Source: a virus
Lineage: Duplodnaviria > Caudoviricetes
Virus record (IMG/VR): IMGVR_UViG_3300033067_001009
Coordinates: 11,905 to 75,904 of that record
Reading direction: 5' to 3' (one strand)
DNA length: 64,000 nt
In this document: positions 7,971-45,345 of the stretch, in pieces
Position numbering within the stretch: position 1 is the stretch's first letter
Layout of the letters: each line of letters begins with the position of its first letter
Program-made: the position numbers and the translations under genes
Notes under the pieces: model-generated
The model's input: only the letters and a program-made list of their open reading frames with translations
What the model was told of the DNA's origin: nothing
Databases searched by the model: none

Positions 7971-8943
7971 CATCATCAACGCTGCTCCTGTCGGGGACTT
8001 CTCGGACAGGGTGGCGATTGACGCGAGTGCCGATAAGCGCTATTCTGACGAGTTCGTCCGTACCGCTCGTCGAATGGCCGCAGCCCGTGTACTGGAAGCC
8101 ATCGGCAACAACCCGCAGCACCCGTACTGGGGATACTTGGCAACCAAGGTATCTGTCGTCAATGGTGACGCGATCCCTCCCTGCTTCGGGCAAATCGGCA
8201 TCCCTGAGATTCAACCGGCCAACGGCAGCTCGTGGATTCAAGGCGACGAAGCGGCGAGCGACGAAATCGACTCGTACCGTGGGGACTCGGTCGACAACGC
8301 AGGTCTCAACCTTTTCAGCAACCCGCTCGGTGAGGCTCGCTACTCGCATCTCCAGAAAGCAACGAGCGGGGTCAAGAACCCGATTTCTGCCAAGTACTCG
8401 ACCACGAATGGTTACATTACTTTTACAGGCTACGCTTGCCGGATGCCGATGCTCAAAGTTCCGGACGATGGCGGACGTACACTGGCAGGGACGGTCAGTA
8501 CAACGTCCGAAAGCAACAGCGTGGTCGGTACGCTGGCTTTTCAATTAACCGACATCGGAAAACGTCTCATCGTAACTTATGACAACACGCTGGTCTTTAC
8601 AGGTATTATTCAATCGCTTGCGACAACGAGCATTGCCAACGACACGGCAGTCACCGATACCCAGTCGGAGCTTACACAGGCCGGAGCGTCGGCGCGTACC
8701 GAGGACGTCTATCTGGCGATGGATGACACGCTCGACAACAAGATACCGGTAGAGCTGGCAGCCACGAACGTCCGGCTGGCAATCGGTTTGCTGGTCAAAG
8801 AGGGTGACAGCTTGCGCCAGATCGCCGCAGCGTACGCCGGTCAGGGAGAGGTCGATCTGATTAAGATCACGCAGGGAGCCACGGCTGTCAACGCATTAGA
8901 CGTGACCCGTGCTATTCAGTCGTTCCAGCGTTACAAACAGTAA
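7921..8943 (+). CDS. Putative virion (adaptor/tail) protein
   Basis: 340 aa, translationally coupled to the next gene; contains a beta-rich insert (GTVSTTSESNSVVG). Confidence 0.45.
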   Translation: MSVIFAKPETIQGMLLSIINAAPVGDFSDRVAIDASADKRYSDEFVRTARRMAAARVLEAIGNNPQHPYWGYLATKVSVVNGDAIPPCFGQIGIPEIQPANGSSWIQGDEAASDEIDSYRGDSVDNAGLNLFSNPLGEARYSHLQKATSGVKNPISAKYSTTNGYITFTGYACRMPMLKVPDDGGRTLAGTVSTTSESNSVVGTLAFQLTDIGKRLIVTYDNTLVFTGIIQSLATTSIANDTAVTDTQSELTQAGASARTEDVYLAMDDTLDNKIPVELAATNVRLAIGLLVKEGDSLRQIAAAYAGQGEVDLIKITQGATAVNALDVTRAIQSFQRYKQ

Positions 8944-11012
8944 TGAGCAAGTATATATTAGCACAATTCAGATTCCGAAATGGGTATGCCAGTTCTCTTC
9001 CGATCACGGAGGGGAACGGTTATCTGCGTCAGGGAACCATCAACGCTATGGTCACCGGAGCGGGTTTGATTGTGCCGTTCAAGGGACTCGGAGCACAGCT
9101 CGGACTGGTCGGCTCCAAGCAGTCCTTTATGACCGACAACTATTATGCGGGTCTAGGGTCTGGTTCCCAAACAGGACAAGGCTCGATGTTTCAAGCGATA
9201 AACTTGATGTTCTTTTGCGGTGAGGGTGCAGTAGCCGTCAAAGGGATTCAAATATCGGATGGAGTCGACCCGCTCCAAGCATCTACCAACTTGTCCTACC
9301 TGAAACGAGTCGACGGAGAGTTCACAGAGGGGACACTGGGGACTAACCAGTTTCAGGTAGGGCACCCCCGACCGGACAGCCCGAGCATCTACCTTAAGAC
9401 ACCCCCGTCGTCCGGCAAGTCCCCGATGAGTGCGGCGATCTCGGTCGTCGTCTGGAGAGCCGATTCTAACACTGGGCAGACCTCACTGCCGTCCGTCCCC
9501 AGCACGGTGCTGGAGCTGGCGAACGGTTCGTGCATCGTCCAGTTCGGATTGCCAGACGCGAACGGTCAGGATGTCTGGGGCATCGGAGTTCCGCTGCTGG
9601 GTCTCAGAGACTTAGGGAATTTCTATCAGTTACCTATCGACATAGGTGGAGAGGTTCTGGAGTCTACCCTCTCATATACACGCGCCATCGACAAGGCGAC
9701 GATCAATCTTGGGGACACGGTGCTGACGATCCACGGAACTACTCCGGTCGATAAACAATTCACGACAGCGGACATCGGTAGACGAGTATCCATCGGAGTC
9801 GGGGGTGCCGACCTCGATTCGTGGATTGTCTCAATCACGGATGCGTTTACCGCTGTTGTTCACGATGCTGCTCTCAATACAGTGGGAGATGTCCCACTAA
9901 CAATCACCCACGCCATCGACGGTATCACGAGAGCCGTCGAAATTTCTTGGGCTGACACTGACCTGTTCGGGCAGGAGTTGGCTCCGTATTTGGCGTTTGA
10001 ACCACCCGACTGCTTGTTCGCAGGGGTATTGAGGGATACGTTTTATGTGGAAGATTTGGAGGGTACCATCCTTTATTCAGTCCCTAATAGTTTGTCTTTT
10101 CCCCGTAGTCAGCGAATCTTCACCGAAGACCGAGCGACCTGTTGGATTTCCACCGGAAACGGGTACCATTGGCGAATCGCCCCGCAATCCGTGGGGAGAC
10201 TCTACTACATTGGAGGACTTCAACCGATTCAACTTGACATCCTTTCCAATAACATTGGATGCCAATTTGTCCAGAACGCTTGTGTAGGGTATGGCGGGAA
10301 CTTGATGCTGTGGTCTGGTAGACCGACACTCATCGGCATCGACGGCTCGATGAACTCGACATTCTACCTAATCGTCGAGCAGGACTTCGACGGTTGGGAA
10401 GACCAGACCGAGGATGAGCCTGTCGTCACTGCTTACGATCCGATAGGTCAGTATGAGGTCTGGGTTAAAGGCCGGACAGCTATTCCGCGCCACGCTCCAA
10501 CCGGTAACTGGTCGAGTCCGTGCGACCTGACTCCGTGGCTGGAGAGCGAGGAGTCGATCATCGTCGGACGGGTCGTGATCCACGAACGACTGCATCTGGT
10601 CGAGAAGACCGTGTCAGGAGACCTGCTGCTCAAAGAGTGGAACGCCAACCTCGGGTCGGTGATGACGCTCCAGTCCTACTACGAGGATACCCAGAGAGCA
10701 TTGGCAACCATCTCTCAGATCGATACTATTGTACAGGCCGCTGATAGGCAGACCAGCTTCAAGATGACGGTCATCAAAGACTTCGTCAAAGAGATCGAGA
10801 TGGAAACCGTCGACATCCCCAGCAACCCGCACCATCAAGTCCTGACCTCATTCCGACCGAACATCCGTGGAGGGCAGGTTCTCGGCGTTAAAGTTGAGGT
10901 CTCTGGCGGCGGGGGAGCACCGGCTGACGGCAGGGCTGCGGTAGATTACATTACTTTTTACGGAGAGATTTCCGAGACGTTCGCACAGGTTGGCACAGCC
11001 CAGCAGGTGTAG
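8943..11012 (+). CDS. Probable tail nozzle/tubular protein (P22 gp10-like role)
   Basis: 689-aa beta-rich protein in the post-adaptor position. Confidence 0.45.
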   Translation: MSKYILAQFRFRNGYASSLPITEGNGYLRQGTINAMVTGAGLIVPFKGLGAQLGLVGSKQSFMTDNYYAGLGSGSQTGQGSMFQAINLMFFCGEGAVAVKGIQISDGVDPLQASTNLSYLKRVDGEFTEGTLGTNQFQVGHPRPDSPSIYLKTPPSSGKSPMSAAISVVVWRADSNTGQTSLPSVPSTVLELANGSCIVQFGLPDANGQDVWGIGVPLLGLRDLGNFYQLPIDIGGEVLESTLSYTRAIDKATINLGDTVLTIHGTTPVDKQFTTADIGRRVSIGVGGADLDSWIVSITDAFTAVVHDAALNTVGDVPLTITHAIDGITRAVEISWADTDLFGQELAPYLAFEPPDCLFAGVLRDTFYVEDLEGTILYSVPNSLSFPRSQRIFTEDRATCWISTGNGYHWRIAPQSVGRLYYIGGLQPIQLDILSNNIGCQFVQNACVGYGGNLMLWSGRPTLIGIDGSMNSTFYLIVEQDFDGWEDQTEDEPVVTAYDPIGQYEVWVKGRTAIPRHAPTGNWSSPCDLTPWLESEESIIVGRVVIHERLHLVEKTVSGDLLLKEWNANLGSVMTLQSYYEDTQRALATISQIDTIVQAADRQTSFKMTVIKDFVKEIEMETVDIPSNPHHQVLTSFRPNIRGGQVLGVKVEVSGGGGAPADGRAAVDYITFYGEISETFAQVGTAQQV

Positions 11013-11037
11013 TTCGAGTGTCGACACTCAAAGCACT

Positions 11038-12738
11038 ATGACAATGACTCCGAGTGAGAGAGCCGAGATACTTCGGGAAGCAATGGGATTCCAAGACCCA
11101 GCCGGTCTGACCGCATTCATTCAACGGCAGAGCGCACTGGGTCGCCTTATCTACCCAGACTACCAGAGCACTCAGGCAATCACTGCCGGAGGAACCAACT
11201 TCTGCCCCAACTCCGATTTCGCGTGGTCTCATATGGCCGCAACCACCGCAGGTATCACCCCCGCCACAGCCGGAGACACCAATTACGAAATATACAGCGT
11301 GTTTCGGCAGGTTCAGGGAGCCAACATAGGTACCGACCGTGTCAGGTCTTCCGGTCACTCACTGTATGCGGCGAACGAGGGAGTCAGCACTTGGATTCCA
11401 ATCTGGGACAGGGTACAGGGCAACGTACATCTCGGTACAGGAACCATCGGAGCCGCCAACTACGACATCGCCGTCCAGATGACTAACTCGTGGTTGCAGA
11501 ACAACAGATTCAGGTACGTCCGTGTAGCGGTTGCGACGGACGGTACCACTCCACTTCCGGTCGGCGCAAAACTCTACGCCGGTTACTGGGCAAAGTTCAG
11601 CGGCGGCACCGAGGGCTGGGTGACAGGCGACGGGTTTACTATCTCGTACCGGAGACACGCTCCGGTCGGAACCCGCCACCTGCAATACCTTGTGATTGCC
11701 AAAACTTCGGTAGGCACTTCTCTGGAGAGTGCCGTGCTGGACGTACTAGACGCGCCGACCGACCTCGACTCCAACAACTACATCGAGCTGACATATTCAG
11801 ACGCTACCGGATTCATCCAGTTCGAGGTATACCGCAAAGACGTGGCGACCGGTCGTGTCGACTTAATCGCCAATGATGTCAACTCGTCCCAGCTCTGGGC
11901 GTATGACATCGGCCAGTCAATCCGCGTCGAGACAGCCGGATTCCCGTCCGGAGATATGACGGATCACCGAGCCTACTCAGAAGTGCTGCTGGATGCGGTG
12001 GATTACGCGCAGCAGCTCACGTTCCACGATCTCAAGGTTCGAGTACCGGCAACATTCGACACCTCTCACCTTGTGACTGTCTACCTGAGAATCGGCATCA
12101 AGGATTTGGTCGCCGCTGACAGGCAGATTATTTTAGACACTGTGTGGGAAAGCGACAGCTTCAATGTCTGGTCACCGTCAGCCTTTGACGTATACCCCAG
12201 CCCACGCTCAACGACTCTCGCTACGGCACCACCGAGCGGGGGGACTAACCCGACAGACCATCCTCCGGTCGGAGGAGGTGTCAGCTGTCTATGGACAGGT
12301 CACGACATCCTGACTTCCGGAGGGTGGTTAAAACTGGAGGAGTTACGGGAGGGTATGCGCGTAAAGACCGGAGCACCTCTCCCTAATCTGGTAGAGAGAA
12401 TCCGATGGGCTACCGTCAGCCAGTACTTTATACTGGAGTTCAGCAACGGGGCAGTCCTCATCGCTACCGGCAGCCACCGGTTTGCCAGATCGCTGTACGA
12501 TGGCTCCGGAGTTCAGGTAGCCAATATGGAAGCCGGTGACACCGTACTGGGCGGGGATACTTCGCAAGGGGACTACGACATTACCCTGTTGTCTAAAGAG
12601 CTGGTGTCAGCTTCCGCGCAGCTTCCAGTGGCGACACTCAAGCATACCGCTAACAGCCCGAATAAGCTATACAGAGTGGGGTGTAAACTCACGGGTGTGT
12701 ATGTCAATTCGCACAACCTAAAGTCACCTGACTTATAG
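11038..12738 (+). CDS. Tail-associated protein with C-terminal Hint (intein-like) domain
   Basis: Pro/Gly linker, then C(LWTGHDI), a TGSHRF block-B motif and terminal SHN followed by only LKSPDL*. The Hint domain spans 12286-12717. Confidence 0.75.
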   Translation: MTMTPSERAEILREAMGFQDPAGLTAFIQRQSALGRLIYPDYQSTQAITAGGTNFCPNSDFAWSHMAATTAGITPATAGDTNYEIYSVFRQVQGANIGTDRVRSSGHSLYAANEGVSTWIPIWDRVQGNVHLGTGTIGAANYDIAVQMTNSWLQNNRFRYVRVAVATDGTTPLPVGAKLYAGYWAKFSGGTEGWVTGDGFTISYRRHAPVGTRHLQYLVIAKTSVGTSLESAVLDVLDAPTDLDSNNYIELTYSDATGFIQFEVYRKDVATGRVDLIANDVNSSQLWAYDIGQSIRVETAGFPSGDMTDHRAYSEVLLDAVDYAQQLTFHDLKVRVPATFDTSHLVTVYLRIGIKDLVAADRQIILDTVWESDSFNVWSPSAFDVYPSPRSTTLATAPPSGGTNPTDHPPVGGGVSCLWTGHDILTSGGWLKLEELREGMRVKTGAPLPNLVERIRWATVSQYFILEFSNGAVLIATGSHRFARSLYDGSGVQVANMEAGDTVLGGDTSQGDYDITLLSKELVSASAQLPVATLKHTANSPNKLYRVGCKLTGVYVNSHNLKSPDL

Positions 12739-12825: not shown

Positions 12826-13449
12826 GTGGGCGCAAAGCAAAGACTACGAGACCAACTTGAGCAGATGATGATGGCACAGATTCAGCGCAATAACGCACCG
12901 AATCCGGAGCTGGAAATGCTCAAAGGTTACAACAAGAGCATCATCGACTGGCATCTCAACCCAAACAACACGGTCAAGGACATCGCCAAGCACCCAACCA
13001 TCGGCGGCAAGTTGCCGACATATCAGCTCGCCAAGTCATTCAGAGACAAAGGCCGGATCGGCAGGGGCATCGCCGGATTGGGAGGCAAAAACGATGCGGC
13101 GTATTCAAAAGACTTGGAGCAGCAGACCGACTTCGAGCGAGGGATCACAGCGTCAGGTATGCTGGAGACCGGCTTACAGAACGAGCTGGATCAGTCCGCA
13201 TCCAACCTCGCCCAGCTGGAGGCGCAGGACGAGCAGCGACGGAGCAGCTCTAATAGTTTAATCCAGTATTACCACTCGGACTTGAACCGGAGAATCGCTT
13301 CCGGTGGCTGGGGCGGGTTTTTACGTGGGCTGGCTAGTACCGTAATACCAATCGGCGCGTCAATACTTACTGGCGGGCTGAGCGGTATGCTGTCCGGAGG
13401 AGGAGCGTCAGCGCAACCAAGACAAAGTAGCGCAGGAGTGCAGGGATAA
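12826..13449 (+). CDS. Putative ejection/pilot protein
   Basis: Gln-rich helical region and a Gly-rich hydrophobic C-terminus (GGWGGFLRGLASTVIPIGASILTGG), as in podovirus ejection proteins. Confidence 0.45.
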   Translation: MGAKQRLRDQLEQMMMAQIQRNNAPNPELEMLKGYNKSIIDWHLNPNNTVKDIAKHPTIGGKLPTYQLAKSFRDKGRIGRGIAGLGGKNDAAYSKDLEQQTDFERGITASGMLETGLQNELDQSASNLAQLEAQDEQRRSSSNSLIQYYHSDLNRRIASGGWGGFLRGLASTVIPIGASILTGGLSGMLSGGGASAQPRQSSAGVQG

Positions 13450-14186
13450 TGGCAATTCAAAATCAATATTCGCAGGATCGACCGAGAGTCATTTTCAAGT
13501 ACACGTATCCAGCAGGTGCGGTGTACACGCTAAAGAGGTTTGTCGAGGTGGCTCTCAAGGCTGCGTCAGACCTCTTCATTAACCAAACCGTCGCCAATGC
13601 TGCCGCTCGACTGGCGCTGACCAATATTCTGAGCGGGTATCTGGTCTACCAGACCGATACGACTGCGTTCTGGAAGTTCACCGGCACGAACCCAGCGGTC
13701 GCCGGAGACTGGACGCTGCAAGCCCAGCAGGTAGCTAACCAAGCGGCGAGGCTGGCAATCGCCGCACCACCGATTGGCACCATCGTGTACCAAGTTGACA
13801 CGACCAGCTGGTACAACTACGTCGGCAACCCGAACAACACGGCTCTGAACAATCCAGCTGACAATACACAGTGGTTGATAGTCAACGCCGATATGAGTTT
13901 CACCCAGTACGTGATCGCTTTTCTTAAAGACTTGACGTGGGTTCTCGACGGGTATTCGTCCATAAAGAACGTCGACGGAGCAGCAGTGACGCTGAAAGTG
14001 CTGACCTCATTCGTCCGCAACAGCGACGGGGAGGCTCCGTACATTGCGACCCAGATGACTACCTACGGTACCGACATCGCCCAAAACGCAACCAAGCTAC
14101 TGTACGGTCGGCTTGAGCCGCAAAGACTTGTGCTCTATTGCGCGTCCAACTGTGCTTTGGAATTAGACCTTTGCTTCGGAACATAA
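13449..14186 (+). CDS. Putative virion protein with a tandem duplicated fibre-type module
   Basis: Two copies of VANxAARLA(L/I)...G..VYQ.DTT..(W/Y). Confidence 0.5.
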   Translation: MAIQNQYSQDRPRVIFKYTYPAGAVYTLKRFVEVALKAASDLFINQTVANAAARLALTNILSGYLVYQTDTTAFWKFTGTNPAVAGDWTLQAQQVANQAARLAIAAPPIGTIVYQVDTTSWYNYVGNPNNTALNNPADNTQWLIVNADMSFTQYVIAFLKDLTWVLDGYSSIKNVDGAAVTLKVLTSFVRNSDGEAPYIATQMTTYGTDIAQNATKLLYGRLEPQRLVLYCASNCALELDLCFGT

Positions 14187-16573
14187 TGAACAAGATTCTG
14201 TTTACAATTTTATTCGTGCTGCTGCTTTGCGTGTCGACACTCGCAAGCAGCATTACCGTTAATCCGATCACCGTCTCGTCGTGGCGCTATCCAATGGTTC
14301 AGGGTATCAAAGTTCGCATTTACCCGAACAATACATTCCTGACATCGGACGGTTCATTGGTTAAACGTGGGCAGGTAGGTGTGTCCCAGTGGTATAAAGA
14401 GTACAGCTGTACGGTGAGCGGCACCAACGTGACCCTCCCGACAATGACGTTGGATTCGACCACGGATTCAGACGTGCCATCAGCATCATACACAGCGATC
14501 TTCTTCGACTCTAAAGGCAACAAGATAGATACTTATTACAACGCTTTCAGAGTCCCGTCTACATACGGATCGACAGTTACTTGGAACGACATCCGAGCGT
14601 ACACCGAGTCCGTCAGCATCACGCTGCCGAGCGGGTATTATCCGGTTACCACGACCGATTCGAGACTGGAGAAAGACCTATCGCTGTACAGCAACTCTTT
14701 AACCACAGCAATCGCTGCTCTGGGCGTATCTGACACCACGCTGGGGTGTACCCGTGCTGTGACGGTCTCAGTCGATACCACGATACCCAAGAACCTCAAG
14801 CTCCGACCGAGCAGCGAGTGTTTGATTACGGTCGCCGCAGGTAAGACCCTGACTATTAACGCGATGGTCGAAGACCCTGTCAACTGGCGTATCTTCAACA
14901 CCACCGCAGCGGGAGCCAGCGTACGATTCGGAAAGGGCGCTGTACACCGGATGAATATCAACTGGTGGACTGGCAGCGCCACCGGCGCTGCGGTCGACGC
15001 TACCGACGCGATCTCGGAGGCACTGGCCTCGACCACTGCCAACGCCGGAGGGACAATCTATTTCCCCGAGGGCAACTACACGACGACCGGAGGACATCAA
15101 GGAGCGGACAACGTGATTGTCGAGGGGGACTCGAACTTCGTCAGCTACGGGTATGGAGGCACCAACCTCAAGCTGGTTTCACCGACGACCACGTATATGT
15201 TTAAGATCGGGGAGGGGGAGTTCGGAATCCGGTTCAAAAATATTTTACTTGACGGTACAGGTACGACCGGCAAGGATGCGATTCTTTTACAGGGTGCGTA
15301 CCCGAACACAAGTGGCGACCTCAAGTTCACGAACGTCACCATTCAGAACTTCGCCATCGGACTTCACTACAACTCAACCTCCGGAAGCTGGCAGTTCGCC
15401 CAGATCGGATTCGACTCGTGTATCTTTCAGACCAACACAGTCGCCGTCTCGGCCAACTCGTTGAACTCGCAGCTCACGTTCGAGAATACGAACTTCGCTG
15501 TACCAGCTTCCGGAAAGGCTTTCGATATGGCTGGCGGCGGGTTGCTGACAGTCAAAGGGTCGGAGTTCGCCGGAGGTGGTTCAACATCCAAGGTCATCGT
15601 CATCAGCGGGGCGCACGTACAGTACGACTTCATAGGTGTGCAGGACGAGAACTTCGGGACGTTCTTGCAGAACGATGCGAGCGATGTCTCCGGCATAACG
15701 AACATCATCGGGTCGCTGATCCAGTCGAAGATTCAGCTTAACCAGACGTGTACGCTGAACTCGTTCGGAAACAATTACCTATCTAAAGCATTCGTGTTCG
15801 GAGTCGGGGCAACTCCATTCGTCACCAGTCGTGGGGATCACATCCGAGGAGTGGATGTGGCAGACGGGGTAACCGTAGTGTCTCCACCCAGACTGGCGAG
15901 CGATGTAACTAAGCAGGACAACATCGTGATCGAAGAGAACGGTATCAATACCGAGCTGAGATACAGGCAGCCGGTTAAAGTGATCTCGCCTTTGATCTAC
16001 GACAGCACGTCGACCATACCGTTTTCGGTAGGCATCTACCAGCCGAGCGGCGTCGACAAGCCAGCGATCCGGTTCGGGAGACTGGACATCAACGGGGCAT
16101 TCGATTACTACTACGACATCACCCGTGAGTACAGCACCGGACGTGCTATATTCTCCGGCAATCAAACCGGATTCGTTGGTTACGAATTTCGCAACGGTGA
16201 CGTGTATGTCAGCGGTGCGATACGCGGTCAGTCCTACCAACTGACCGATGCCGCCACGATCACGTTAGACCCGAAAGCTGGTAATCACCAATACGTGACT
16301 CTGGGCGGCAACAGAACGCTGGCGATGCTGGCGTTGGGTGCAGCCGAGAAAACACGGTCGGACGGAATGAGACTCACAATCGAGATCATTCAAGACGCGA
16401 CCGGAACCCGTACCTGTTCCCTGTCGACCGGTTCGGCGGGACAGTTCGTATTCGGTACCGACATTGCAAGTATCACCTGCACGGTAACGGCGAACAAGAG
16501 AGACCTGCTCACTGTCGTCTATTCGGCTAGAATGGACAGGTGGATGGTCGTGGATTTCAAGAAAGGTTTTTAG
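14186..16573 (+). CDS. Tailspike/depolymerase-like protein with beta-helix and N-terminal signal peptide
   Basis: Starts MNKILFTILFVLLLCVSTLA. Contains a pectate-lyase-3-like motif (AISEALAST..AGGTIYFPEGNY) and a C-terminal phage fibre domain (LTIEIIQDATGTRT...DLLTVVY). Confidence 0.7.
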   Translation: MNKILFTILFVLLLCVSTLASSITVNPITVSSWRYPMVQGIKVRIYPNNTFLTSDGSLVKRGQVGVSQWYKEYSCTVSGTNVTLPTMTLDSTTDSDVPSASYTAIFFDSKGNKIDTYYNAFRVPSTYGSTVTWNDIRAYTESVSITLPSGYYPVTTTDSRLEKDLSLYSNSLTTAIAALGVSDTTLGCTRAVTVSVDTTIPKNLKLRPSSECLITVAAGKTLTINAMVEDPVNWRIFNTTAAGASVRFGKGAVHRMNINWWTGSATGAAVDATDAISEALASTTANAGGTIYFPEGNYTTTGGHQGADNVIVEGDSNFVSYGYGGTNLKLVSPTTTYMFKIGEGEFGIRFKNILLDGTGTTGKDAILLQGAYPNTSGDLKFTNVTIQNFAIGLHYNSTSGSWQFAQIGFDSCIFQTNTVAVSANSLNSQLTFENTNFAVPASGKAFDMAGGGLLTVKGSEFAGGGSTSKVIVISGAHVQYDFIGVQDENFGTFLQNDASDVSGITNIIGSLIQSKIQLNQTCTLNSFGNNYLSKAFVFGVGATPFVTSRGDHIRGVDVADGVTVVSPPRLASDVTKQDNIVIEENGINTELRYRQPVKVISPLIYDSTSTIPFSVGIYQPSGVDKPAIRFGRLDINGAFDYYYDITREYSTGRAIFSGNQTGFVGYEFRNGDVYVSGAIRGQSYQLTDAATITLDPKAGNHQYVTLGGNRTLAMLALGAAEKTRSDGMRLTIEIIQDATGTRTCSLSTGSAGQFVFGTDIASITCTVTANKRDLLTVVYSARMDRWMVVDFKKGF

Positions 16574-16575
16574 CT

Positions 16576-16593
16576 TTGAGTGTCGACACTCAA
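16576..16593. repeat. 18-bp perfect palindrome TTGAGTGTCGACACTCAA
   Basis: Intergenic; immediately followed by GAGGAGG and the GTG start at 16608. Confidence 0.95.
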
Positions 16594-16607
16594 GAGGAGG
16601 TTTAACC

Positions 16608-16919
16608 GTGCCAGTAAACAATGCCGTCTTGGCAACCTTGACGACCGAGATCACAGCCGGAGCACAGACGCTGGCGACACTGTTCGCCGCTATCCGCGCC
16701 GGTAAATATTCCAATTACACGTCGGTCGTATTCACGAATCGTGGCAGTACAACGCTGCGGTTCTTCATTACCGAGCTTGGCTACTCTGCCGTCAACGGCA
16801 ACTCGGTCACGCTTGAGGGAGGCGAGCAGCTCCCGATCAGCTCGCTTAACACCGGTACGGTTTACGTGCTGGGTGCAGGAGCCAACGATCTGTTGGAGTT
16901 CCGAGGAGAGATCGCATAA
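16608..16919 (+). CDS. Small beta-rich virion accessory protein
   Basis: 103 aa with a strong RBS; jelly-roll-like pattern (VVFTNRGSTTLRF...VTLEGGEQL). Confidence 0.5.
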   Translation: MPVNNAVLATLTTEITAGAQTLATLFAAIRAGKYSNYTSVVFTNRGSTTLRFFITELGYSAVNGNSVTLEGGEQLPISSLNTGTVYVLGAGANDLLEFRGEIA

Positions 16920-17864
16920 ATGAAACGATTCATATACATACTAATGCTGGCAGCCGTGCTGCTGACGACGACCGTTCTCGGACAGAAACCGATCCAGACG
17001 GACTTCATCGGATTCCGAAAGACCGATCCGGCCACGTGCGGCAGGGTCGGTCTGAGGTATTTCAACACCACTGCGTTGCAGGAGCGAATGTGCATATCTA
17101 CGACCGGCTCCGGAACGTGGGTGGCTGCCGCCGCTCCGGACGGCTCCGGTCTCGACGCGTTCGGATTACCGAACATCGGCGCTCTGGGTACACGTGTGCG
17201 GATCACCGGCCAGCTGGCTGTCGGCAATAACGATGTCTACACCGTACCGGCAGGGTACCAGCTACTAACCCGCTATATATTCTACTGGGGAGTGTCGACC
17301 GGCTACTCAGTCTACTCCGGAGTAAAGGAAGCGTCGAACTACCGACGACTCAGCACGATCACCGCTGTCGGCGCTAACGCTGCCCGAGGGGACGCATACG
17401 TATACGGAGCGGAGTCAGGTGAGGTGGTGTTCCTAAACAGCACGGTAATCAATGTCCGCTATCAGATTGACGGGTTTTTGATCCCGAACACCAGCCCTAT
17501 CAATGTCGTCAGAGCTTGGCAGACAACTCAGACCGCAGCGACGGATACGCTTCTGTACACCGTACCGGCAGGAAAGACGGCTTTCTTCGTTGCGTTCGGT
17601 TCCGGTCTCTGGGTAGCCGGTGCAGGGTCGGTAGTAATTACCAACGACTCGGGTGTGTCCGGAACCGCCCAAGTGGGGTTTGTGCCGTCAGGGGGAACCA
17701 TCGGGGCGAGTTACTACGGCCTTCTGGGCGTTGCCAATAACACAGCGAGCCAAGCCGTTATGTCCACGATACCACCGTTTGGGCAAGCTGGAGATAAACT
17801 CTATTACCAGACATCGATCGCCAATGCGGGTCAGACCGCTTGGATTACGTTACTGGAGTTTTAA
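16920..17864 (+). CDS. Signal-peptide-bearing fibre-like protein
   Basis: MKRFIYILMLAAVLLTTTVLG/QK; two internal LYTVPAG(Y/K)T-type repeats. Confidence 0.6.
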   Translation: MKRFIYILMLAAVLLTTTVLGQKPIQTDFIGFRKTDPATCGRVGLRYFNTTALQERMCISTTGSGTWVAAAAPDGSGLDAFGLPNIGALGTRVRITGQLAVGNNDVYTVPAGYQLLTRYIFYWGVSTGYSVYSGVKEASNYRRLSTITAVGANAARGDAYVYGAESGEVVFLNSTVINVRYQIDGFLIPNTSPINVVRAWQTTQTAATDTLLYTVPAGKTAFFVAFGSGLWVAGAGSVVITNDSGVSGTAQVGFVPSGGTIGASYYGLLGVANNTASQAVMSTIPPFGQAGDKLYYQTSIANAGQTAWITLLEF

Positions 17865-18961
17865 TGAAGACATTGCTTCTGACAATTTTACTACTCAGCG
17901 CTGCTCTGGTCTACGGGCAACGCCCTACCCAGTCTGACTTCTTAGGATTCAGGGCTGTCGATCCTGTGCGCTGCTCGCGCATAGGTCTGAGATACTTCAA
18001 CACGTTCACCGGAGTGACCAAGGTGTGCACCTCTGTCTCCGGCTCTGGTACTTGGTCACCTATATTGGTGAACGGAGCTAGTTACGGGCATCTGATAGAC
18101 CCCGCCTACGTACCGCTTGCTGGTGCCTTGAATGCGGATAACCTGTTCTCGGTTGCCAGCAACGACAACGTCCAGAACAATGCAGGGGTGATTACTACCT
18201 CGAATCACTTCGTCGGCTCGGCGTTCGATCTAAAGATAACAGCCAGCGGAGCGGATAAGTGGTACTACGGTATGTACAACGCCATCCGAGTAGGCGGCAG
18301 TTACACCGGAAGTAATGGGTATATCTACGGAATTTACAATTCGGTAAACAACCGGCTAAATGTGACGGCCACTCCGAGAGTGTACGGCATATCATCCTCT
18401 ATTAATTTGGAGGGCAGTGCGTTGGAAGCGGTTGCCGGAGACTTCGCGTCTTATCGTGGCAGCTCCAACACTAACCCGAAGTTCGTCGGTATTCGCTCTC
18501 AGGCAGCCAACGCTTATTCGGATGCGACAGAGATCACGGCAGGGGAGTTCTGGGCGAGAACCATCAACCCGTCATTCGCCCCTACCGCTACCTTGCTGAG
18601 ATCGATCTGGGCGCACCAATCGTACGTGGCCGGCACGGTCGTGACCGCACGTGGGTTAGACATCAGCGGCTGGACTACGACTAACACCACGGTCAACAAC
18701 ACAGCTGCGGTCTACATCGATAACTCCAGTAATATCGGGGTGACCAGTAATTACGCGATCCAGTCGGACTCAACCGCTCCCAGCTACTTTACCGGAAACG
18801 TCAGCGTATCCGGTACCGGAAAGTTCTACGTAACAACTCCGCAGACACCAGCCTCATCGTCAGCTGCGTGTACTACAGGTCAGCTCGCGTGGGACACAGG
18901 ATTCGTCTACGTTTGCGTAGGCACTAATACGTGGAAGCGATCAGCGCTGACCACTTGGTAA
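17864..18961 (+). CDS. Signal-peptide-bearing tail-fibre-like protein
   Basis: MKTLLLTILLLSAALVYG/QR; C-terminal PASSSAACTTGQLAWDTGFVYVCVGTNTWKR, a motif common in phage fibres. Confidence 0.65.
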   Translation: MKTLLLTILLLSAALVYGQRPTQSDFLGFRAVDPVRCSRIGLRYFNTFTGVTKVCTSVSGSGTWSPILVNGASYGHLIDPAYVPLAGALNADNLFSVASNDNVQNNAGVITTSNHFVGSAFDLKITASGADKWYYGMYNAIRVGGSYTGSNGYIYGIYNSVNNRLNVTATPRVYGISSSINLEGSALEAVAGDFASYRGSSNTNPKFVGIRSQAANAYSDATEITAGEFWARTINPSFAPTATLLRSIWAHQSYVAGTVVTARGLDISGWTTTNTTVNNTAAVYIDNSSNIGVTSNYAIQSDSTAPSYFTGNVSVSGTGKFYVTTPQTPASSSAACTTGQLAWDTGFVYVCVGTNTWKRSALTTW

Positions 18962-18966
18962 ACTTT

Positions 18967-19548
18967 ATGAACCACAAATACACAGACGATCAACTACTCA
19001 CTAGAGTAGAGACAAAGGCCGAGGGGTTCACCGGTTGGAAAGCCGGTGTTTATGACATTTGGGTTAGGTCGACTGCCGACCTGCCGGACAAATTCGATGA
19101 CGTGGTATACACGTTCCTGTGCAGTCGTGACGGGGATCGACCGATATTCGTTATGAAATGCACCGGTACATCGAACGCCGGTAGCTTCGGACTGTTGCAA
19201 TTCCGTACCTACAACAAGGACGGCTGCGCGGTGCTCAAGTCCGATTGCTTGGTCGAGCATTCCCACGCTTTCGGCTATCACAAGCAGAACCCGAAGAACC
19301 CAGCCTACGTTCAGGTCAAGGATTTCCCGTACTATCGGGACAACAATATGAACCTGAAAGCCGAGGAGATCGGTATCGAACGTCACGGACTGATCGGTGC
19401 CAACTGCCACAAGGCCGGTAAGTTCTCGACGATTATTTACAACTGGTCGGTCGCGTGTTTGGTTCGCAACGTACAGGCCGAGTTCGATGCGTGGTTGCTG
19501 TGGATGAACCACCGTCCGCTCTCGGTCTGCATCTTAAAAGAGTTCTAG
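18967..19548 (+). CDS. Putative endolysin of atypical family
   Basis: Motifs KFDD, YYRDNN, GANCHKA and WSVAC (His...Cys, reminiscent of YkuD-like catalytic residues); lies directly before a holin-like gene. Confidence 0.5.
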   Translation: MNHKYTDDQLLTRVETKAEGFTGWKAGVYDIWVRSTADLPDKFDDVVYTFLCSRDGDRPIFVMKCTGTSNAGSFGLLQFRTYNKDGCAVLKSDCLVEHSHAFGYHKQNPKNPAYVQVKDFPYYRDNNMNLKAEEIGIERHGLIGANCHKAGKFSTIIYNWSVACLVRNVQAEFDAWLLWMNHRPLSVCILKEF

Positions 19549-19551
19549 GAG

Positions 19552-19869
19552 GTGCCAGTGGCTTTTCTACAAACATTATTCGTACTGTCGGTATCGACAT
19601 TCGTACCATTATTGATTTATGCAATAACAAAATGCAAGGCCGAGTTTGATCCTGTATCATTCCTATGGTACAGCCGGACACGCCTTGTGTTGACCGTTAC
19701 CATCCTGCTGATACTGGCGGGAGCAATAACCTACGACGAGGCTTGGGTCAAGATGATCCTATCTTACGTCGGATTCGACGTTGGAACTACGACCACCGGA
19801 ATCGGTCTCGCTCTCAGCGGGTTGCTGATCTCCGGCATTCGTGGCAACAACGACAAGGAGGAACAATGA
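19552..19869 (+). CDS. Putative holin
   Basis: 105 aa with three hydrophobic segments and a charged C-tail. Confidence 0.55.
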   Translation: MPVAFLQTLFVLSVSTFVPLLIYAITKCKAEFDPVSFLWYSRTRLVLTVTILLILAGAITYDEAWVKMILSYVGFDVGTTTTGIGLALSGLLISGIRGNNDKEEQ

Positions 19870-20375
19870 GACAATTAATCTGTATTCTGCTGATCGCGTG
19901 TACACTGTTGTACGGGTCGGCGTGTAACTCAAAGTCGACCGTCGATTATGTCGCCAAGGCCAACGTCCGGTTATCGAACCTGACGTTTCGTTTCGGTCAG
20001 GCTCTGAACCAAGCAGCTGCGGAGGGACGACTGTCTCCGGCGACCAAGCTGGAGTACGCCAACGGGCTGCAAGCCGTGATCGACGGAGGCACACAGGTAA
20101 CGCTGGCGCTGGAGGGGCTGGTCGCCAAGTATCCGGACGGGAACATACCGTCAGCGGAGCTACGTAAGATTGACTTTCTTTTCAGCGATGTCGTCGTTAC
20201 ACCGGTACTGTCGCTGCTAACCAAAGTCCATCTCATTACGCAGGATACTCAGGACTATCTGCTGATCGCCATCACGGCAGTCAAAGTCCTCGTGTTGGAG
20301 GTGGCATCGAGACTCGGTAAGAACTCAGTAAGCTATTACCGAGTGTACGGAAAGGAGGCACTAACCAATGGCTGA
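19866..20375 (+). CDS. Lipoprotein, possibly spanin-like
   Basis: MRQLICILLIACTLLYGSAC lipobox followed by a helical body; lies in the lysis cassette. Confidence 0.5.
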   Translation: MRQLICILLIACTLLYGSACNSKSTVDYVAKANVRLSNLTFRFGQALNQAAAEGRLSPATKLEYANGLQAVIDGGTQVTLALEGLVAKYPDGNIPSAELRKIDFLFSDVVVTPVLSLLTKVHLITQDTQDYLLIAITAVKVLVLEVASRLGKNSVSYYRVYGKEALTNG

Positions 20376-20559
20376 CACACGAATAACCACGGCTGCAAGG
20401 GACGATCTCGTGTTCTGGCTCCGGCGACTCGCGTTGCTGGTCGAGCAGGATCGGGTACAGGCAGAGGAGATTAAAGGTCTTACTCTGCCGCAATTAGTCG
20501 AGCTGGCGAAAGGAAACTGGAACGCAGCTCAAGGCGAAGTTGACAAGTTGAAATCGTAG
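20368..20559 (+). CDS. Small helical hypothetical protein
   Basis: 63 aa with a GGAGG RBS; overlaps the previous stop. Confidence 0.5.
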   Translation: MADTRITTAARDDLVFWLRRLALLVEQDRVQAEEIKGLTLPQLVELAKGNWNAAQGEVDKLKS

Positions 20560-20601
20560 GAACGGTTTTTGCAACTCCCTCGGAGGAGGCTACAAACTAC
20601 A

Positions 20602-21018
20602 ATGAACAGATTAAACGAGAGAGAAGTATCGTTCTCGGGTTATAACGTACCGATTCCCGCTCCCGCTGCTGTAAATCCGAGTGTACATAAGCAAAAAGAA
20701 AAAGGACGGGCGTGGTTACGAAACAGGTTGCTGGATTTGAATTTCATAGGTATGACTACAACTAACAACAAACCTAGCGGTTTCTTCGTAAACTACACGA
20801 CCATCACGGTAGTCATCGCTATCGTAATGTCGCTCGGCACATTGATCGGTGGGCTGTACAAGTACACCTACGATGTTGCGTACCAAAAGGGTGTCACCGA
20901 TACCAAGCAGACTCAGCTGCAACAGGAGATCGAAGCGCTCAAATTGAAACAAGCGGAGACAGAGCAGCGGCTCCCGCAAGCTACTCCCGAACCGACCGTT
21001 GCGAAAACTAAAAAATAG
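20602..21018 (+). CDS. Single-pass membrane protein with coiled coil
   Basis: TM segment ITVVIAIVMSLGTLIGGLY, then a coiled coil. The start codon is uncertain. Confidence 0.45.
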   Translation: MNRLNEREVSFSGYNVPIPAPAAVNPSVHKQKEKGRAWLRNRLLDLNFIGMTTTNNKPSGFFVNYTTITVVIAIVMSLGTLIGGLYKYTYDVAYQKGVTDTKQTQLQQEIEALKLKQAETEQRLPQATPEPTVAKTKK

Positions 21019-40354: not shown

Positions 40355-41980
40355 CTAACCTCCTGACGATAAGTCCTTTAGATGGTGGTAGATAGCCCAC
40401 GTCTTCGGAAAGCACTGCTCGACGATCTTGTCGACAGCCTTGGCGTACTGCTGGATTTCCCACTGGGCAGCCGGATCATCACGGAGCGACAGGAACGCCA
40501 ACCAGTTCCTGAGAACGGCAGACGCTCGCATCTGCGAATATCTGCCGACCGGAATCACGACCCTCGCCAGCTCTTTCGGAATACCGCAGGTCAGACCGTA
40601 CTGGTATAACTGCTCCGCATCATTGTAGAACGCAGCCAGAGCGTTCTCCCAGTGGGTAGCGTTGTTGTCGTTCAGCTCGGCAGCACCGATAGCGACACCG
40701 GCTTGCTTGTTCGTCGTACTTGTCAGGTACAGTCGCTCGCGTGTCGGCTCATAGTTGACATCCGGCAGCGGCGCGTACCGTGCAGACATCTCGTTGTATG
40801 AATTATGAATCAACAAGTTATCTGCCGCAAACCAGTTGTTTCCAGTTACCGAAATGTCGAAAGTGTCTTTCAAACCCAGAGCGTTAATGGATAGTATCTT
40901 AACCGGAACTTCTCTTAATCGCTTTCTACCACCGTTAAGTTGACTATCATCTGCGTTGTCTTGAGCAGTGCCGAGTTTCAGATTCAGCAATCTGTTATCT
41001 AAAGGGTTGTCGTTCTTATGTAGAACCCATTCGCTAGACCTGCCTAAGAATGCGTTAGCAACCAGCACCGAGACCTGTACCGTCTTGTTGTTAATTGAAA
41101 CTACCGCTCTGTGGTCGGTGTTCACTGTTTGAGTTTTGAGGTAGGGCTGCCTCTGCTTTCTGACTCCTCTGGTTGACCAGTAAGAACGTACCCTGCCGAG
41201 ATTAGATACTTCGTATCCTTCGGATACTTCTCGCCACTCTTCGTTCATTATTTCTTCATTACTGATAGCAGGGAACACCGATGCCGCACCTCTGTCACCA
41301 TTTTGTATCATCGCCATCACTTCCGTAATACCGTCCTTTAGCCTACCCGAACCGTAAGGAGTCTTGAACAAATGGTCTTCTGACACCTCTACCTCTCCGT
41401 ACTTGGTACGAACCAAGTACACCTGTTTTTGCCCTGTGTGCCAAGCGCCGGTTACATTAACAAACCCGTCATTGTTTCGTAACTGCATTGCGGAAATCCT
41501 TGCTTTGGTTTTAGGGTTTAAGAACCCAGAAACCACGTCCAGCATAGATTTTCTGTAAGCCTTTCCGTCAACAGGTCTGTTAAATACCAACGGTGTACTA
41601 CCTGAAACGCACTGTGTCCGATGACGGTGCCATTCCCTGAACACGAAGATCGGGGCGCGAACTTCGATAATCATTCCGGCGAACTCGAACGGTGTCGAGT
41701 GTCGATTCTTAAACATAAAGTTCAGCAGATTTGTGTCGTTGGCTAGTTTGCCGAAGCACTGCGCCCCAGTACGGTCATTGTGGGCTGCTATCTTAGCTAT
41801 GAACTGCTTATCGCAGTCAGGACAGTAACACACGTCCCACCCACGGAAGTTCCCCTGTGTCGATTGCCTCGCAGCCTCGATGATTCCGGCCTCGTCGACT
41901 CCGGCATCACCCCCGCCCCAGTACTCGACCAGCCTGACGAACCCGTGGTCAAGCACCGGTATGTTGATTTCTTTCTTCAT
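40355..41980 (-). CDS. thyX: Flavin-dependent thymidylate synthase, intein-interrupted
   Basis: HGFVRLV, HSTPFE and REWHRHRTQ|intein|SYNEMSARY (RHRxxSxxxxSxR motif). Confidence 0.92.
   Translation of the reverse strand: MKKEINIPVLDHGFVRLVEYWGGGDAGVDEAGIIEAARQSTQGNFRGWDVCYCPDCDKQFIAKIAAHNDRTGAQCFGKLANDTNLLNFMFKNRHSTPFEFAGMIIEVRAPIFVFREWHRHRTQCVSGSTPLVFNRPVDGKAYRKSMLDVVSGFLNPKTKARISAMQLRNNDGFVNVTGAWHTGQKQVYLVRTKYGEVEVSEDHLFKTPYGSGRLKDGITEVMAMIQNGDRGAASVFPAISNEEIMNEEWREVSEGYEVSNLGRVRSYWSTRGVRKQRQPYLKTQTVNTDHRAVVSINNKTVQVSVLVANAFLGRSSEWVLHKNDNPLDNRLLNLKLGTAQDNADDSQLNGGRKRLREVPVKILSINALGLKDTFDISVTGNNWFAADNLLIHNSYNEMSARYAPLPDVNYEPTRERLYLTSTTNKQAGVAIGAAELNDNNATHWENALAAFYNDAEQLYQYGLTCGIPKELARVVIPVGRYSQMRASAVLRNWLAFLSLRDDPAAQWEIQQYAKAVDKIVEQCFPKTWAIYHHLKDLSSGG
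40802..41611 (-). mobile_element. Intein (270 aa) with NUMOD4/HNH-type homing endonuclease
   Basis: Cys1 (CVSGSTP), VSEDHLF block B, terminal HN then Ser+1. Inner YEVSNLGRVRS and VLHKNDNPLDNRLLNL. Visibly more AT-rich than the flanks. Confidence 0.9.
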
Positions 41981-42422
41981 TTTTAATCTCCTCCTCGATT
42001 TGTTCGACTGCCACATCGAGCGGCAGTGCTATGGTTCCGCACACGATTCCGAGCGCATTACTCAGCAACGTGTCCAGCTCGAATACAGCACCGGCCTTTT
42101 CCCACATCTCGATCCGCGCCGGACGCATATCGCTGAACCGATTTTTGTTTACCCGTTCTTGGTAGCGCCGGATGTAGGTCGATGCTTTCTTAAGATCGTC
42201 GATCTTGTTGTCGTGCTTCCGACCGGCGCGGCAGATGTACTTTGCCGCATTACCAAGCCGGAAGTCCAAACGAAAGAACTCGATCACCTCGTCGACGAAC
42301 CACCCGTGGTAGTAGTTCCGACCGCTATGAGTGTCGACACTCGAAGCAGCCGCAGTACCTGCTGCGTTCTTCCAGCAGTAACCCTCGTCCTTTCCGCATT
42401 CTTCACATATTAACTTTCCCAT
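41949..42422 (-). CDS. DUF3310-like (T7 gp1.7-like nucleotide kinase family) protein
   Basis: HSGRNYY...FRLGNAAKYICRAGRK...DDLKKASTYI. Confidence 0.7.
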   Translation of the reverse strand: MGKLICEECGKDEGYCWKNAAGTAAASSVDTHSGRNYYHGWFVDEVIEFFRLDFRLGNAAKYICRAGRKHDNKIDDLKKASTYIRRYQERVNKNRFSDMRPARIEMWEKAGAVFELDTLLSNALGIVCGTIALPLDVAVEQIEEEIKNEERNQHTGA

Positions 42423-45039: not shown

Positions 45040-45345
45040 CTATTTGTTTCCGACACCATCGATAGCCAGCGCTTCCGTCAGTGTCTCTTTACACTGCCAA
45101 ACCTCAACCTCGATAGTATCCCCGACTTTGTAGTAGTCTAACTGCTTACTGAATAACTGGCAGTACTGCCGCCGGTCGGAACCCCAGTTACTCCTCTGGA
45201 CTACCTGAACTATGTGGCGTTCCTTATCTCGTACGTCACGCAGCTCGACGGAGTAGTGCCGGTTACAGCTACCTAGCAACGATGCCATCACCAGCATCAC
45301 ACCCACGCTGGCCGCAAGGCACAGCATAATATCTATTAACTTCAT
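45040..45345 (-). CDS. Secreted or lipoprotein-like hypothetical protein
   Basis: Hydrophobic N-terminus ending LLGSC. Confidence 0.45.
   Translation of the reverse strand: MKLIDIMLCLAASVGVMLVMASLLGSCNRHYSVELRDVRDKERHIVQVVQRSNWGSDRRQYCQLFSKQLDYYKVGDTIEVEVWQCKETLTEALAIDGVGNK

Follow-up and report, generated by a model that had tools for sequence, protein, structure and literature searches.

The 75,904-bp IMG/VR record IMGVR_UViG_3300033067_001009 represents an uncultured virus (Duplodnaviria; Caudoviricetes) with a large terminase. The stretch analysed here, termed the window, is the 64-kb part of that record from position 11,905 to position 75,904 (64,000 nucleotides), and all coordinates given for the phage refer to it. 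Four consecutive genes of its late block, named gA to gD, form the subject of this report. Three of them, gA (14186-16573), gC (16920-17864; 314 amino acids, aa) and gD (17864-18961; 365 aa), encode proteins of the tailspike or tail fibre type that begin with what look like Sec signal peptides, while gB (16608-16919; 103 aa) has no signal peptide; all four lie on the plus strand. The ATG of gA overlaps the stop codon of the preceding gene, g13449 (TAATG), the ATG of gC stands immediately 3' of the gB stop, and the ATG of gD overlaps the gC stop. No usable in-frame start was found just past the signals of gA, gC or gD. Downstream in-frame starts with Shine-Dalgarno-like motifs occur only at codon 57 of gC and codon 54 of gD, and either would split a conserved N-terminal cysteine module. 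A preliminary description of the sequence had named starts further downstream as a way in which the signals could be spurious; the stop/start overlaps, which fix the ATGs, and the lack of usable starts behind the signals argue against it. The three signal-bearing genes take up 4.8 kb, or 6% of the genome, and are translationally coupled within the structural operon. Because of this coupling, and because the cluster shows no excess of promoters or terminators and a normal GC content, they are not moron-like.

The N-termini read MNKILFTILFVLLLCVSTLA/SS in gA, MKRFIYILMLAAVLLTTTVLG/QK in gC and MKTLLLTILLLSAALVYG/QR in gD, where the slash marks the predicted cleavage (TLA/SS, VLG/Q and VYG/Q, respectively). 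The signals thus delimited comprise residues 1-20 of gA (14186-14245, plus strand), where the tripartite n/h/c pattern is apparent, residues 1-21 of gC and residues 1-18 of gD. The n-regions (MNK-, MKR- and MK-) are positively charged through lysine or arginine and contain no acidic residue. The hydrophobic cores are uncharged and 12-14 residues long, with Kyte-Doolittle 12-residue maxima of 2.8-3.3 that rank at the top among the signal-like N-termini of the genome, and they lead into -3/-1 positions of the small-residue type (T-L-A/S, V-L-G/Q and V-Y-G/Q). Neither a lipobox ([LVI][ASTVI][GAS]C) nor a twin arginine was present when looked for in the three N-termini. Among some 90 open reading frames (ORFs) of the genome, comparable N-termini were seen only in gA, gC and gD, in two lipoprotein-like ORFs and in a few membrane proteins. 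gD passes the strict signal rule that was run on its family (see below); the gA and gC signals were judged by direct reading. In gC and gD the residue exposed by the predicted cut is glutamine (+1 Gln); in gA it is serine. The earlier claim of three signal peptides is therefore borne out on all three features, n-region, core and small -3/-1 residues. The accompanying claim of paired cysteines stands for gC (two) and gD (four); mature gA has seven. Export and cleavage of all three proteins are likely, judging from these sequence patterns. Since the N-termini are conserved bacterial secretion signals, the proteins probably fold outside the cytoplasm, the compartment in which phage particles are built.

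Behind its signal, gA is predicted to consist of a beta-sandwich with a helix (residues 21-125; 14246-14560), a right-handed beta-helix (approximately residues 181-550; 14726-15835) and a C-terminal region (residues 551-795; 15836-16573) that is modelled at low confidence and contains a cysteine pair (744/765), all on the plus strand. Residues 269-449 match the pectate-lyase-like family PF12708 of Pfam (E 1.4e-6). In the AlphaFold2 model (predicted local distance difference test, pLDDT, 71) the signal appears as a detached, low-confidence helix (residues 2-13), followed by the beta-sandwich (residues 20-122) and by the long beta-helix (pLDDT 80-95), which is the probable glycan-binding or glycan-cleaving body. 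When this model was submitted to Foldseek, the full-length P22 tailspike came first (5gai/2xc1, E 8e-6), followed by tailspikes of LKA1, HK620, Acinetobacter and Klebsiella phages and then by glycanases. A PDB sequence search with the gA family gave no match. Residues 682-795 are 40% identical to a minor tail protein of Streptomyces phage Kromp (tblastn). By its modelled architecture, gA is a true tailspike, and together with the assignment of gD to a tail protein family (below) this upholds the fibre or spike character attributed to these genes at the outset.

The N-terminal domain of gA resembles the parts by which fibres are held on virions. Residues 20-140 modelled alone reached a pLDDT of 93. 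The best four matches of residues 21-125 among 48,161 PDB chains (VIA-align) were the neck fibre of cyanophage A-1(L) (residues 1-96, Z 8.7), Ur-lambda gpStfN (residues 1-93, Z 8.7), the XM1 neck (Z 8.3) and the Bxb1 tail tip (Z 7.3), with Z values of 8.3-8.7 lying only slightly over the usual background of the aligner; below these came generic immunoglobulin-like folds (Z at most 6.0). All four are N-terminal virion-anchor domains of phage fibres, and matches in BFVD include named tail fibre proteins. A division of the gA family into a conserved anchor and variable distal parts was considered and dropped, the N-domain being no better conserved than the beta-helix.

Relatives of gA occur with and without a signal. 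Five (P0024, P0026, P0027, P0029 and P0033) have a full signal before the same N-domain, and a sixth, P0030, has one before a different, cysteine-knob N-terminal module. In P0023, P0025 and P0028 the gene calls start inside the signal. Two others, P0031 (M+LVTI..) and P0032 (M+ITIS..), as called, begin exactly at the predicted cleavage point of gA, and so do stand-alone 130-aa proteins of two IMG/VR siphovirus contigs (L018 and L019). In these contigs the signal-less copy of the N-domain starts right after the tape-measure gene, leaving no room for a signal, and is followed by a signal-bearing protein of about 1020 aa, with a weak beta-helix match in L018 only. From the starting points of P0031, P0032 and the L018/L019 proteins it appears that the mature form of gA corresponds to the signal-less form, and the occurrence of the same N-domain with and without a signal suggests that the signal is a module placed before an otherwise complete protein. 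The genes in question (L018:9998-13443; L019:10016-14659) are inserted between the tape measure and distal tail genes of the lambda or gene transfer agent type, and L019 has in addition a signal-bearing protein of 390 aa.

gD, whose signal is followed by a cysteine-pair module (C37, C55), a core (residues 77-316) and a C-terminal cysteine knob (residues 320-365), matches the PHROG family phrog_17312 ("tail protein"). Its core shares 50% identity with a 667-aa fibre that lacks a signal and ends a siphovirus-like tail module on a contig (L003) of a metagenome-assembled genome (MAG) of Pyrinomonadaceae, and its knob matches proteins of Klebsiella phages and cyanophages that are named as tail fibre or structural. 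An exhaustive profile search returned 4565 relatives at E<=1e-3; the signal statistics cover 164 sequences. By the strict rule, 53 of the 164 carry a signal. The residues about the predicted cut are [AGS]/Q in 45 of these 53 (34 found by script and 11 by eye from the printed list), and the near homologs of gD begin with sequences such as MKTLTILIILLFAVVGFG/Q, MRNYFLILLILLLVIVTVSG/Q and MRKASILFLISAALSFG/Q. At least two cysteines fall within the first 75 mature residues in 39/53 relatives with a signal, as against 11/111 without. The median length is 385 aa with a signal and 544 aa without; other homologs (P0006, P0007, P0009 and P0011) have long N-termini of a different kind. The signals themselves drift freely in sequence among homologs, only the physicochemical pattern being kept. 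A conserved +1 Gln makes sense only if cleavage takes place; therefore the signal peptide is probably cut. Thus, on sequence comparison, the Sec signals look conserved and cleavable, and the check on homologs called for in the preliminary description came out in favour of conservation both in the gD family (53/164) and in the gA family (the six full signals).

gC has the same plan behind its signal, a cysteine-pair module (C40, C58) paralogous to that of gD and then a C-terminal domain, and its body aligns with the C-terminal, distal part of P0006, a fibre that has no signal. No homolog of near-equal length was found for gC, a PDB sequence search with the gD family was without match, and no enzymatic domain was detected in gC or gD. 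The idea that the N-terminal cysteine module is a copy of the C-terminal knob was also tried: a hidden Markov model built from 23 knobs matched N-terminal regions in a small number of relatives with a signal (P0015, E 2e-4) and those of gC and gD only at E ~9, and the idea was dropped. As for the surroundings of the signal-bearing relatives, on contig L015 a pair of adjacent fibre-like genes with signals stands immediately ahead of a peptidoglycan-binding endolysin, and in L016, from another genome, a signal-bearing relative of 495 aa is the last gene before lysis-like genes, so named from their sequence without a family search.

Upstream of gA the late block includes an ORF of 689 aa (8943-11012), g10990 (10990-12738; 582 aa, no signal peptide), an ORF at 12826-13449 and g13449 (13449-14186, plus strand), which encodes a fibre-like protein of 245 aa with no signal peptide and with an internal repeat (..AARLA...G..VYQ.DT..W..). 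The protein atlas links g13449 only weakly (scores 0.77-0.87) to clusters of viral proteins, a few of them with Phage_tail_C, DUF2793 or Mtd_N. A Hint-like domain (C..TxxH..; 12286-12738) ends the g10990 product, a tail-module protein, and a Hint-ending protein likewise follows the tape measure in L003 (5221-6372). gB scores 0.96 by atlas features with three viral clusters of ~100-aa proteins, and so belongs to a widespread small viral family; it has no Pfam or PHROG match. Downstream of gD, in order, lie a 193-aa ORF, a holin-like ORF, a lipoprotein gene, an ORF with a transmembrane segment and a coiled coil, a 512-aa ORF and the gene for a 3866-aa SLT/LPD38 protein, so that the block containing gA to gD runs on into genes for internal virion proteins. 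The late block reads rightward; the replication genes are on the opposite strand. Searches of Pfam, PHROG and NCBIfam were without match for most of the neighbouring structural genes, metagenome scans for relatives and single-protein scans of viral contigs gave no match, and the sole related viral contig found (L001/L004) is too diverged for a comparison of the fibre slot.

The putative lysis block (18967-21018, plus strand) comprises a 193-aa protein (18967-19548), predicted to be cytoplasmic, with no signal and with a match to phrog_3000 (function unknown); a 105-aa holin-like protein with three transmembrane segments; a 169-aa lipoprotein (19866-20375; lipobox LYGSAC); a 63-aa ORF; and a 149-aa i-spanin-like protein with a transmembrane segment and a coiled coil. 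None of these genes has a named family in Pfam, NCBIfam or PDB, and the 18967-19548 product in particular gave no match in a PDB sequence search and falls in no known peptidoglycan hydrolase family. The "lysis cassette" originally described is thus putative: its holin-like, lipoprotein and spanin-like members are named from sequence features, and the supposed endolysin is left without a named family; the placement of gA to gD between tail genes and lysis genes is likewise plausible and is not backed by family matches. The 193-aa protein, standing in the endolysin position, may be a new type of lysin or may be no lysin at all.

Shine-Dalgarno-like motifs precede 34 of 63 phage genes, compared with a background of 13%. 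Shine-Dalgarno use speaks against a Bacteroidota host, and the host is for this reason probably not a member of that phylum. An acidobacterial host fits. In 400 kb of the Pyrinomonadaceae (Acidobacteriota) MAG that carries gD relatives (L020-L039, G001), 55 ORFs have signal-like N-termini, of which about 45 are type-I-like; roughly 30 of these 45, or about two thirds, end in ..A/Q when counted by eye. The "Q-rule" of a +1 Gln was described for Bacteroidetes (PMC5837995), and from this count it seems to apply in the Pyrinomonadaceae MAG too. The +1 Gln habit taken together with Shine-Dalgarno use could serve as a cheap clue to the host. The L003 contig of the MAG encodes a tape measure, the Hint-ending protein and 667-aa fibre mentioned above, an endolysin-like ORF (by sequence only) and holin-like ORFs. 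L015 (G001 contig C80, 24 kb) belongs to the same MAG; it also has four consecutive small proteins with a C-terminal transmembrane segment and may stem from a membrane-containing virus. DNA of the phage itself occurs in riverine and freshwater metagenomes, with no RNA run among the sequencing runs listed.

The reading that we favour, to which we give a probability of roughly 0.45, is that the three proteins mature in the periplasm and dock on particles after the holin has breached the inner membrane, with or without an earlier role in the periplasm. gA, gC and gD would be tailspike and fibre-type proteins of the phage itself, produced late in the form of pre-proteins and routed by their signals through SecYEG, and signal peptidase I would probably cut them after TLA, VLG and VYG. 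This would leave gC and gD with an N-terminal glutamine, as in the majority of proteins exported by the likely host group, and the residue may therefore cyclise to pyroglutamate. Folding, trimerisation and disulfide formation would follow in the periplasm, where glycans of the envelope may already be a target of the gA beta-helix. Given export, there is about an even chance that the opening of the inner membrane by the holin then brings DNA-filled particles together with the spikes of the periplasm while the outer membrane is still closed. A large-hole holin that allows such mixing would fit a candidate lysin with no signal and a holin-like ORF with three transmembrane segments. gA would dock through its Stf-like N-terminal anchor domain, and gC and gD through their common N-terminal module. 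In vitro, completed particles take up P22 tailspikes and T4 fibres, and docking after export would agree with this usual habit of tailspikes and fibres of joining particles last and on their own. A shade more tentative is the fuller statement that in this phage and in a large uncultured group the recognition parts are Sec-exported, trimmed by signal peptidase I, oxidised in the periplasm (and N-capped in gC and gD), and added only once the holin has merged the compartments.

Four observations make the evidence lean towards docking: the anchor fold like that of lambda Stf directly behind the gA signal, the same architecture in the signal-less P0031 and P0032 as called, the translational coupling of the genes inside the late operon, and an inspection of the phage ORFs that showed no signal-less paralog of the three proteins, no dedicated paralog search having been made. 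Several points weigh on the other side. We know of no tailed phage that adds exported parts to its particles. The evidence for the signals is computational throughout, read from sequence patterns, and the lysis genes are putative, identified from sequence features. The Z values of the gA N-domain exceed the aligner's background only slightly, as noted above, and the number of cysteines in mature gA is odd. Exported look-alikes that are not virion parts (WceF and the Bdellovibrio MAT fibres, see below) keep such N-domains, the signal-less g13449 and the Hint-ending g10990 are candidates for the device by which the virion really adsorbs, and one signal-bearing gD relative (L017) lies in an ordinary chromosomal context beside glycan-related membrane genes.

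Some of these points would be accommodated if the proteins were exported and never became part of the virion. They would then be enzymes or lectins derived from receptor-binding proteins, acting, either from within the periplasm or following type II secretion, on the envelope glycans of the infected cell itself; trimming or masking of exopolysaccharide or lipopolysaccharide would keep progeny from being trapped and block late superinfection, and the virion would adsorb via g13449 and g10990. Such a role, the main alternative to docking and somewhat less probable than it, draws on the same export evidence as docking and has precedents in WceF, the MAT fibres and the Q-rule genes of Porphyromonas phages. 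The chromosomal homolog of L017 and the presence in the phage of signal-less fibre-like genes speak for it, and so do the different, longer N-terminal modules of the signal-less gD relatives (median 544 vs 385 aa), because of which the signal-bearing gD forms would lack the usual anchor of the family. It has to contend, however, with three coupled genes, 6% of the genome, inside the structural operon, with a fibre-anchor fold retained in gA, whose architecture recurs in two relatives that are signal-less as called, and with the want of a signal-less paralog among the ORFs inspected. Moreover, gC and gD lack an enzymatic domain, stoichiometric masking by proteins that appear only late seems costly, and periplasmic proteins would still have to cross the outer membrane to reach surface receptors.

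Still less probable is that the N-termini are retained as a membrane tether or as an assembly or trimerisation element, the spikes being assembled from the cytoplasmic side. This would preserve the textbook scheme, and the lack of a +1 Gln in gA is in its favour. A positive n-region, however, predicts an N-in/C-out orientation with the body of the protein outside, and cores of 12-14 residues followed by small -3/-1 residues are too short for stable anchors. A retained helix would also leave unexplained why 45 of 53 family members mirror host signals with a +1 Gln, why cysteine-pair modules go with the signal, why signal-less homologs start exactly at the predicted cut, and why the signals drift freely with only their physicochemical pattern kept. 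An annotation artefact, with true starts downstream or ORFs that are not expressed, is hardly credible: gene callers do cut some homologs inside the signal (P0023, P0025, P0028), but the overlapping stops and starts pin the ATGs of the phage genes, no plausible start lies just past a signal, and the signal is kept in divergent homologs.

Three further features of the genome may be recorded. A 14-bp palindrome, GAGTGTCGACACTC, is present in about 22 copies on the 76-kb genome, both within genes, where it is read as SVDT(Q), and between them (for example at 11016-11029); several copies stand just upstream of Shine-Dalgarno sites, among them the copy between gA and gB (16578-16591), just before the Shine-Dalgarno site of gB. 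A small ORF of the early region on the minus strand (45040-45345) has a lipoprotein-type signal (..SLLGSC/N) and is a candidate superinfection-exclusion or envelope protein. A 553-aa ORF on the same strand (40355-42016) matches thymidylate synthase, with an HNH endonuclease match in its middle, and may contain a homing endonuclease insert or an intein-like element.

Assembly of tailed phages is described in textbooks as wholly cytoplasmic, a view that would need revision if receptor-binding proteins have secretion signals that work. Were docking to be true, the last assembly step would come after the breach of the inner membrane, coupling morphogenesis to lysis, and assembly would be split over two compartments and timed by lysis; if instead the proteins act free of the virion, it would be routine for phages to export copies of the proteins by which they recognise the host, and so to alter its surface. 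Annotation would be affected either way, as a protein with a signal peptide is often taken not to belong to the virion, and so would host-range prediction. Tailspikes and depolymerases of soil and freshwater phages may also need a periplasm, disulfides and a pyroglutamate N-terminus when they are expressed.

No paper was found in the literature on signal peptides of tail fibres or tailspikes, nor on an assembly route of this kind in tailed phages, in keeping with the initial view that Sec signals on such proteins are unusual. Among the closest known structures are the P22 gp9-type tailspikes, with which gA shares a right-handed parallel beta-helix, a C-terminal domain and, judging from its model, a possible N-terminal domain of the particle-binding type, with no detectable sequence similarity. 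Such spikes are the last to join particles; however, known tailspikes lack a signal, their folding taking place in the cytoplasm, whereas gA has a conserved Sec-type signal before its anchor domain. Lambda gpStfN (PDB 9e7m) and the A-1(L), XM1 and Bxb1 anchors likewise place a beta-sheet and helix of about 95 residues at the N-terminus of the fibre, and in Ur-lambda residues 1-94 of StfN form a collar on the tail proteins gpV and gpM (PMC12617516). These anchors begin at residue 1, while the anchor-like domain of gA comes after a 20-residue signal, and the likeness is structural only, and moderate.

Exported proteins with fibre-like or spike-like architecture are known from cells. WceF of Pantoea stewartii is an exported trimeric tailspike-like beta-helix with a P22-like N-terminal head domain that cleaves the producer's exopolysaccharide (PMC7949094). 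It differs from gA in being a cellular gene of an exopolysaccharide cluster with a Tat signal, gA being part of a phage late operon and having a Sec-type signal with no twin arginine. In all 21 MAT fibres of Bdellovibrio bacteriovorus the signal peptide leads directly into a conserved domain of ~130 aa (PMC10769870), an order of signal and beta-rich N-domain that is like that of gA by architecture alone. These are chromosomal genes used by the predator cell itself, and some have the S74 chaperone, a domain not found here by Pfam.

Genes with Q-rule signals, of unassigned function, have been reported from phages of Porphyromonas gingivalis and interpreted there as envelope modifiers (Matrishin et al. 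2023, PMC10367356). In both cases the predicted cleavage exposes an N-terminal Gln, which is taken as an adaptation to the Sec/signal peptidase I pathway of the host; no tail parts were named there, whereas here the signals are borne by proteins of the tailspike and fibre type, in a phage that uses Shine-Dalgarno sites. Cor of phi80 and N15 is a superinfection-exclusion protein of the same kind as Llp. The latter, from T5, is a superinfection-exclusion lipoprotein encoded next to the receptor-binding genes (PMC9586334). Llp and Cor are exported phage proteins encoded beside adsorption genes, as gA, gC and gD would be, and they act on the receptor of the producing cell. They are, however, small lipoproteins unrelated to fibres, whereas gA, gC and gD lack a lipobox and are homologous to fibres or spikes.

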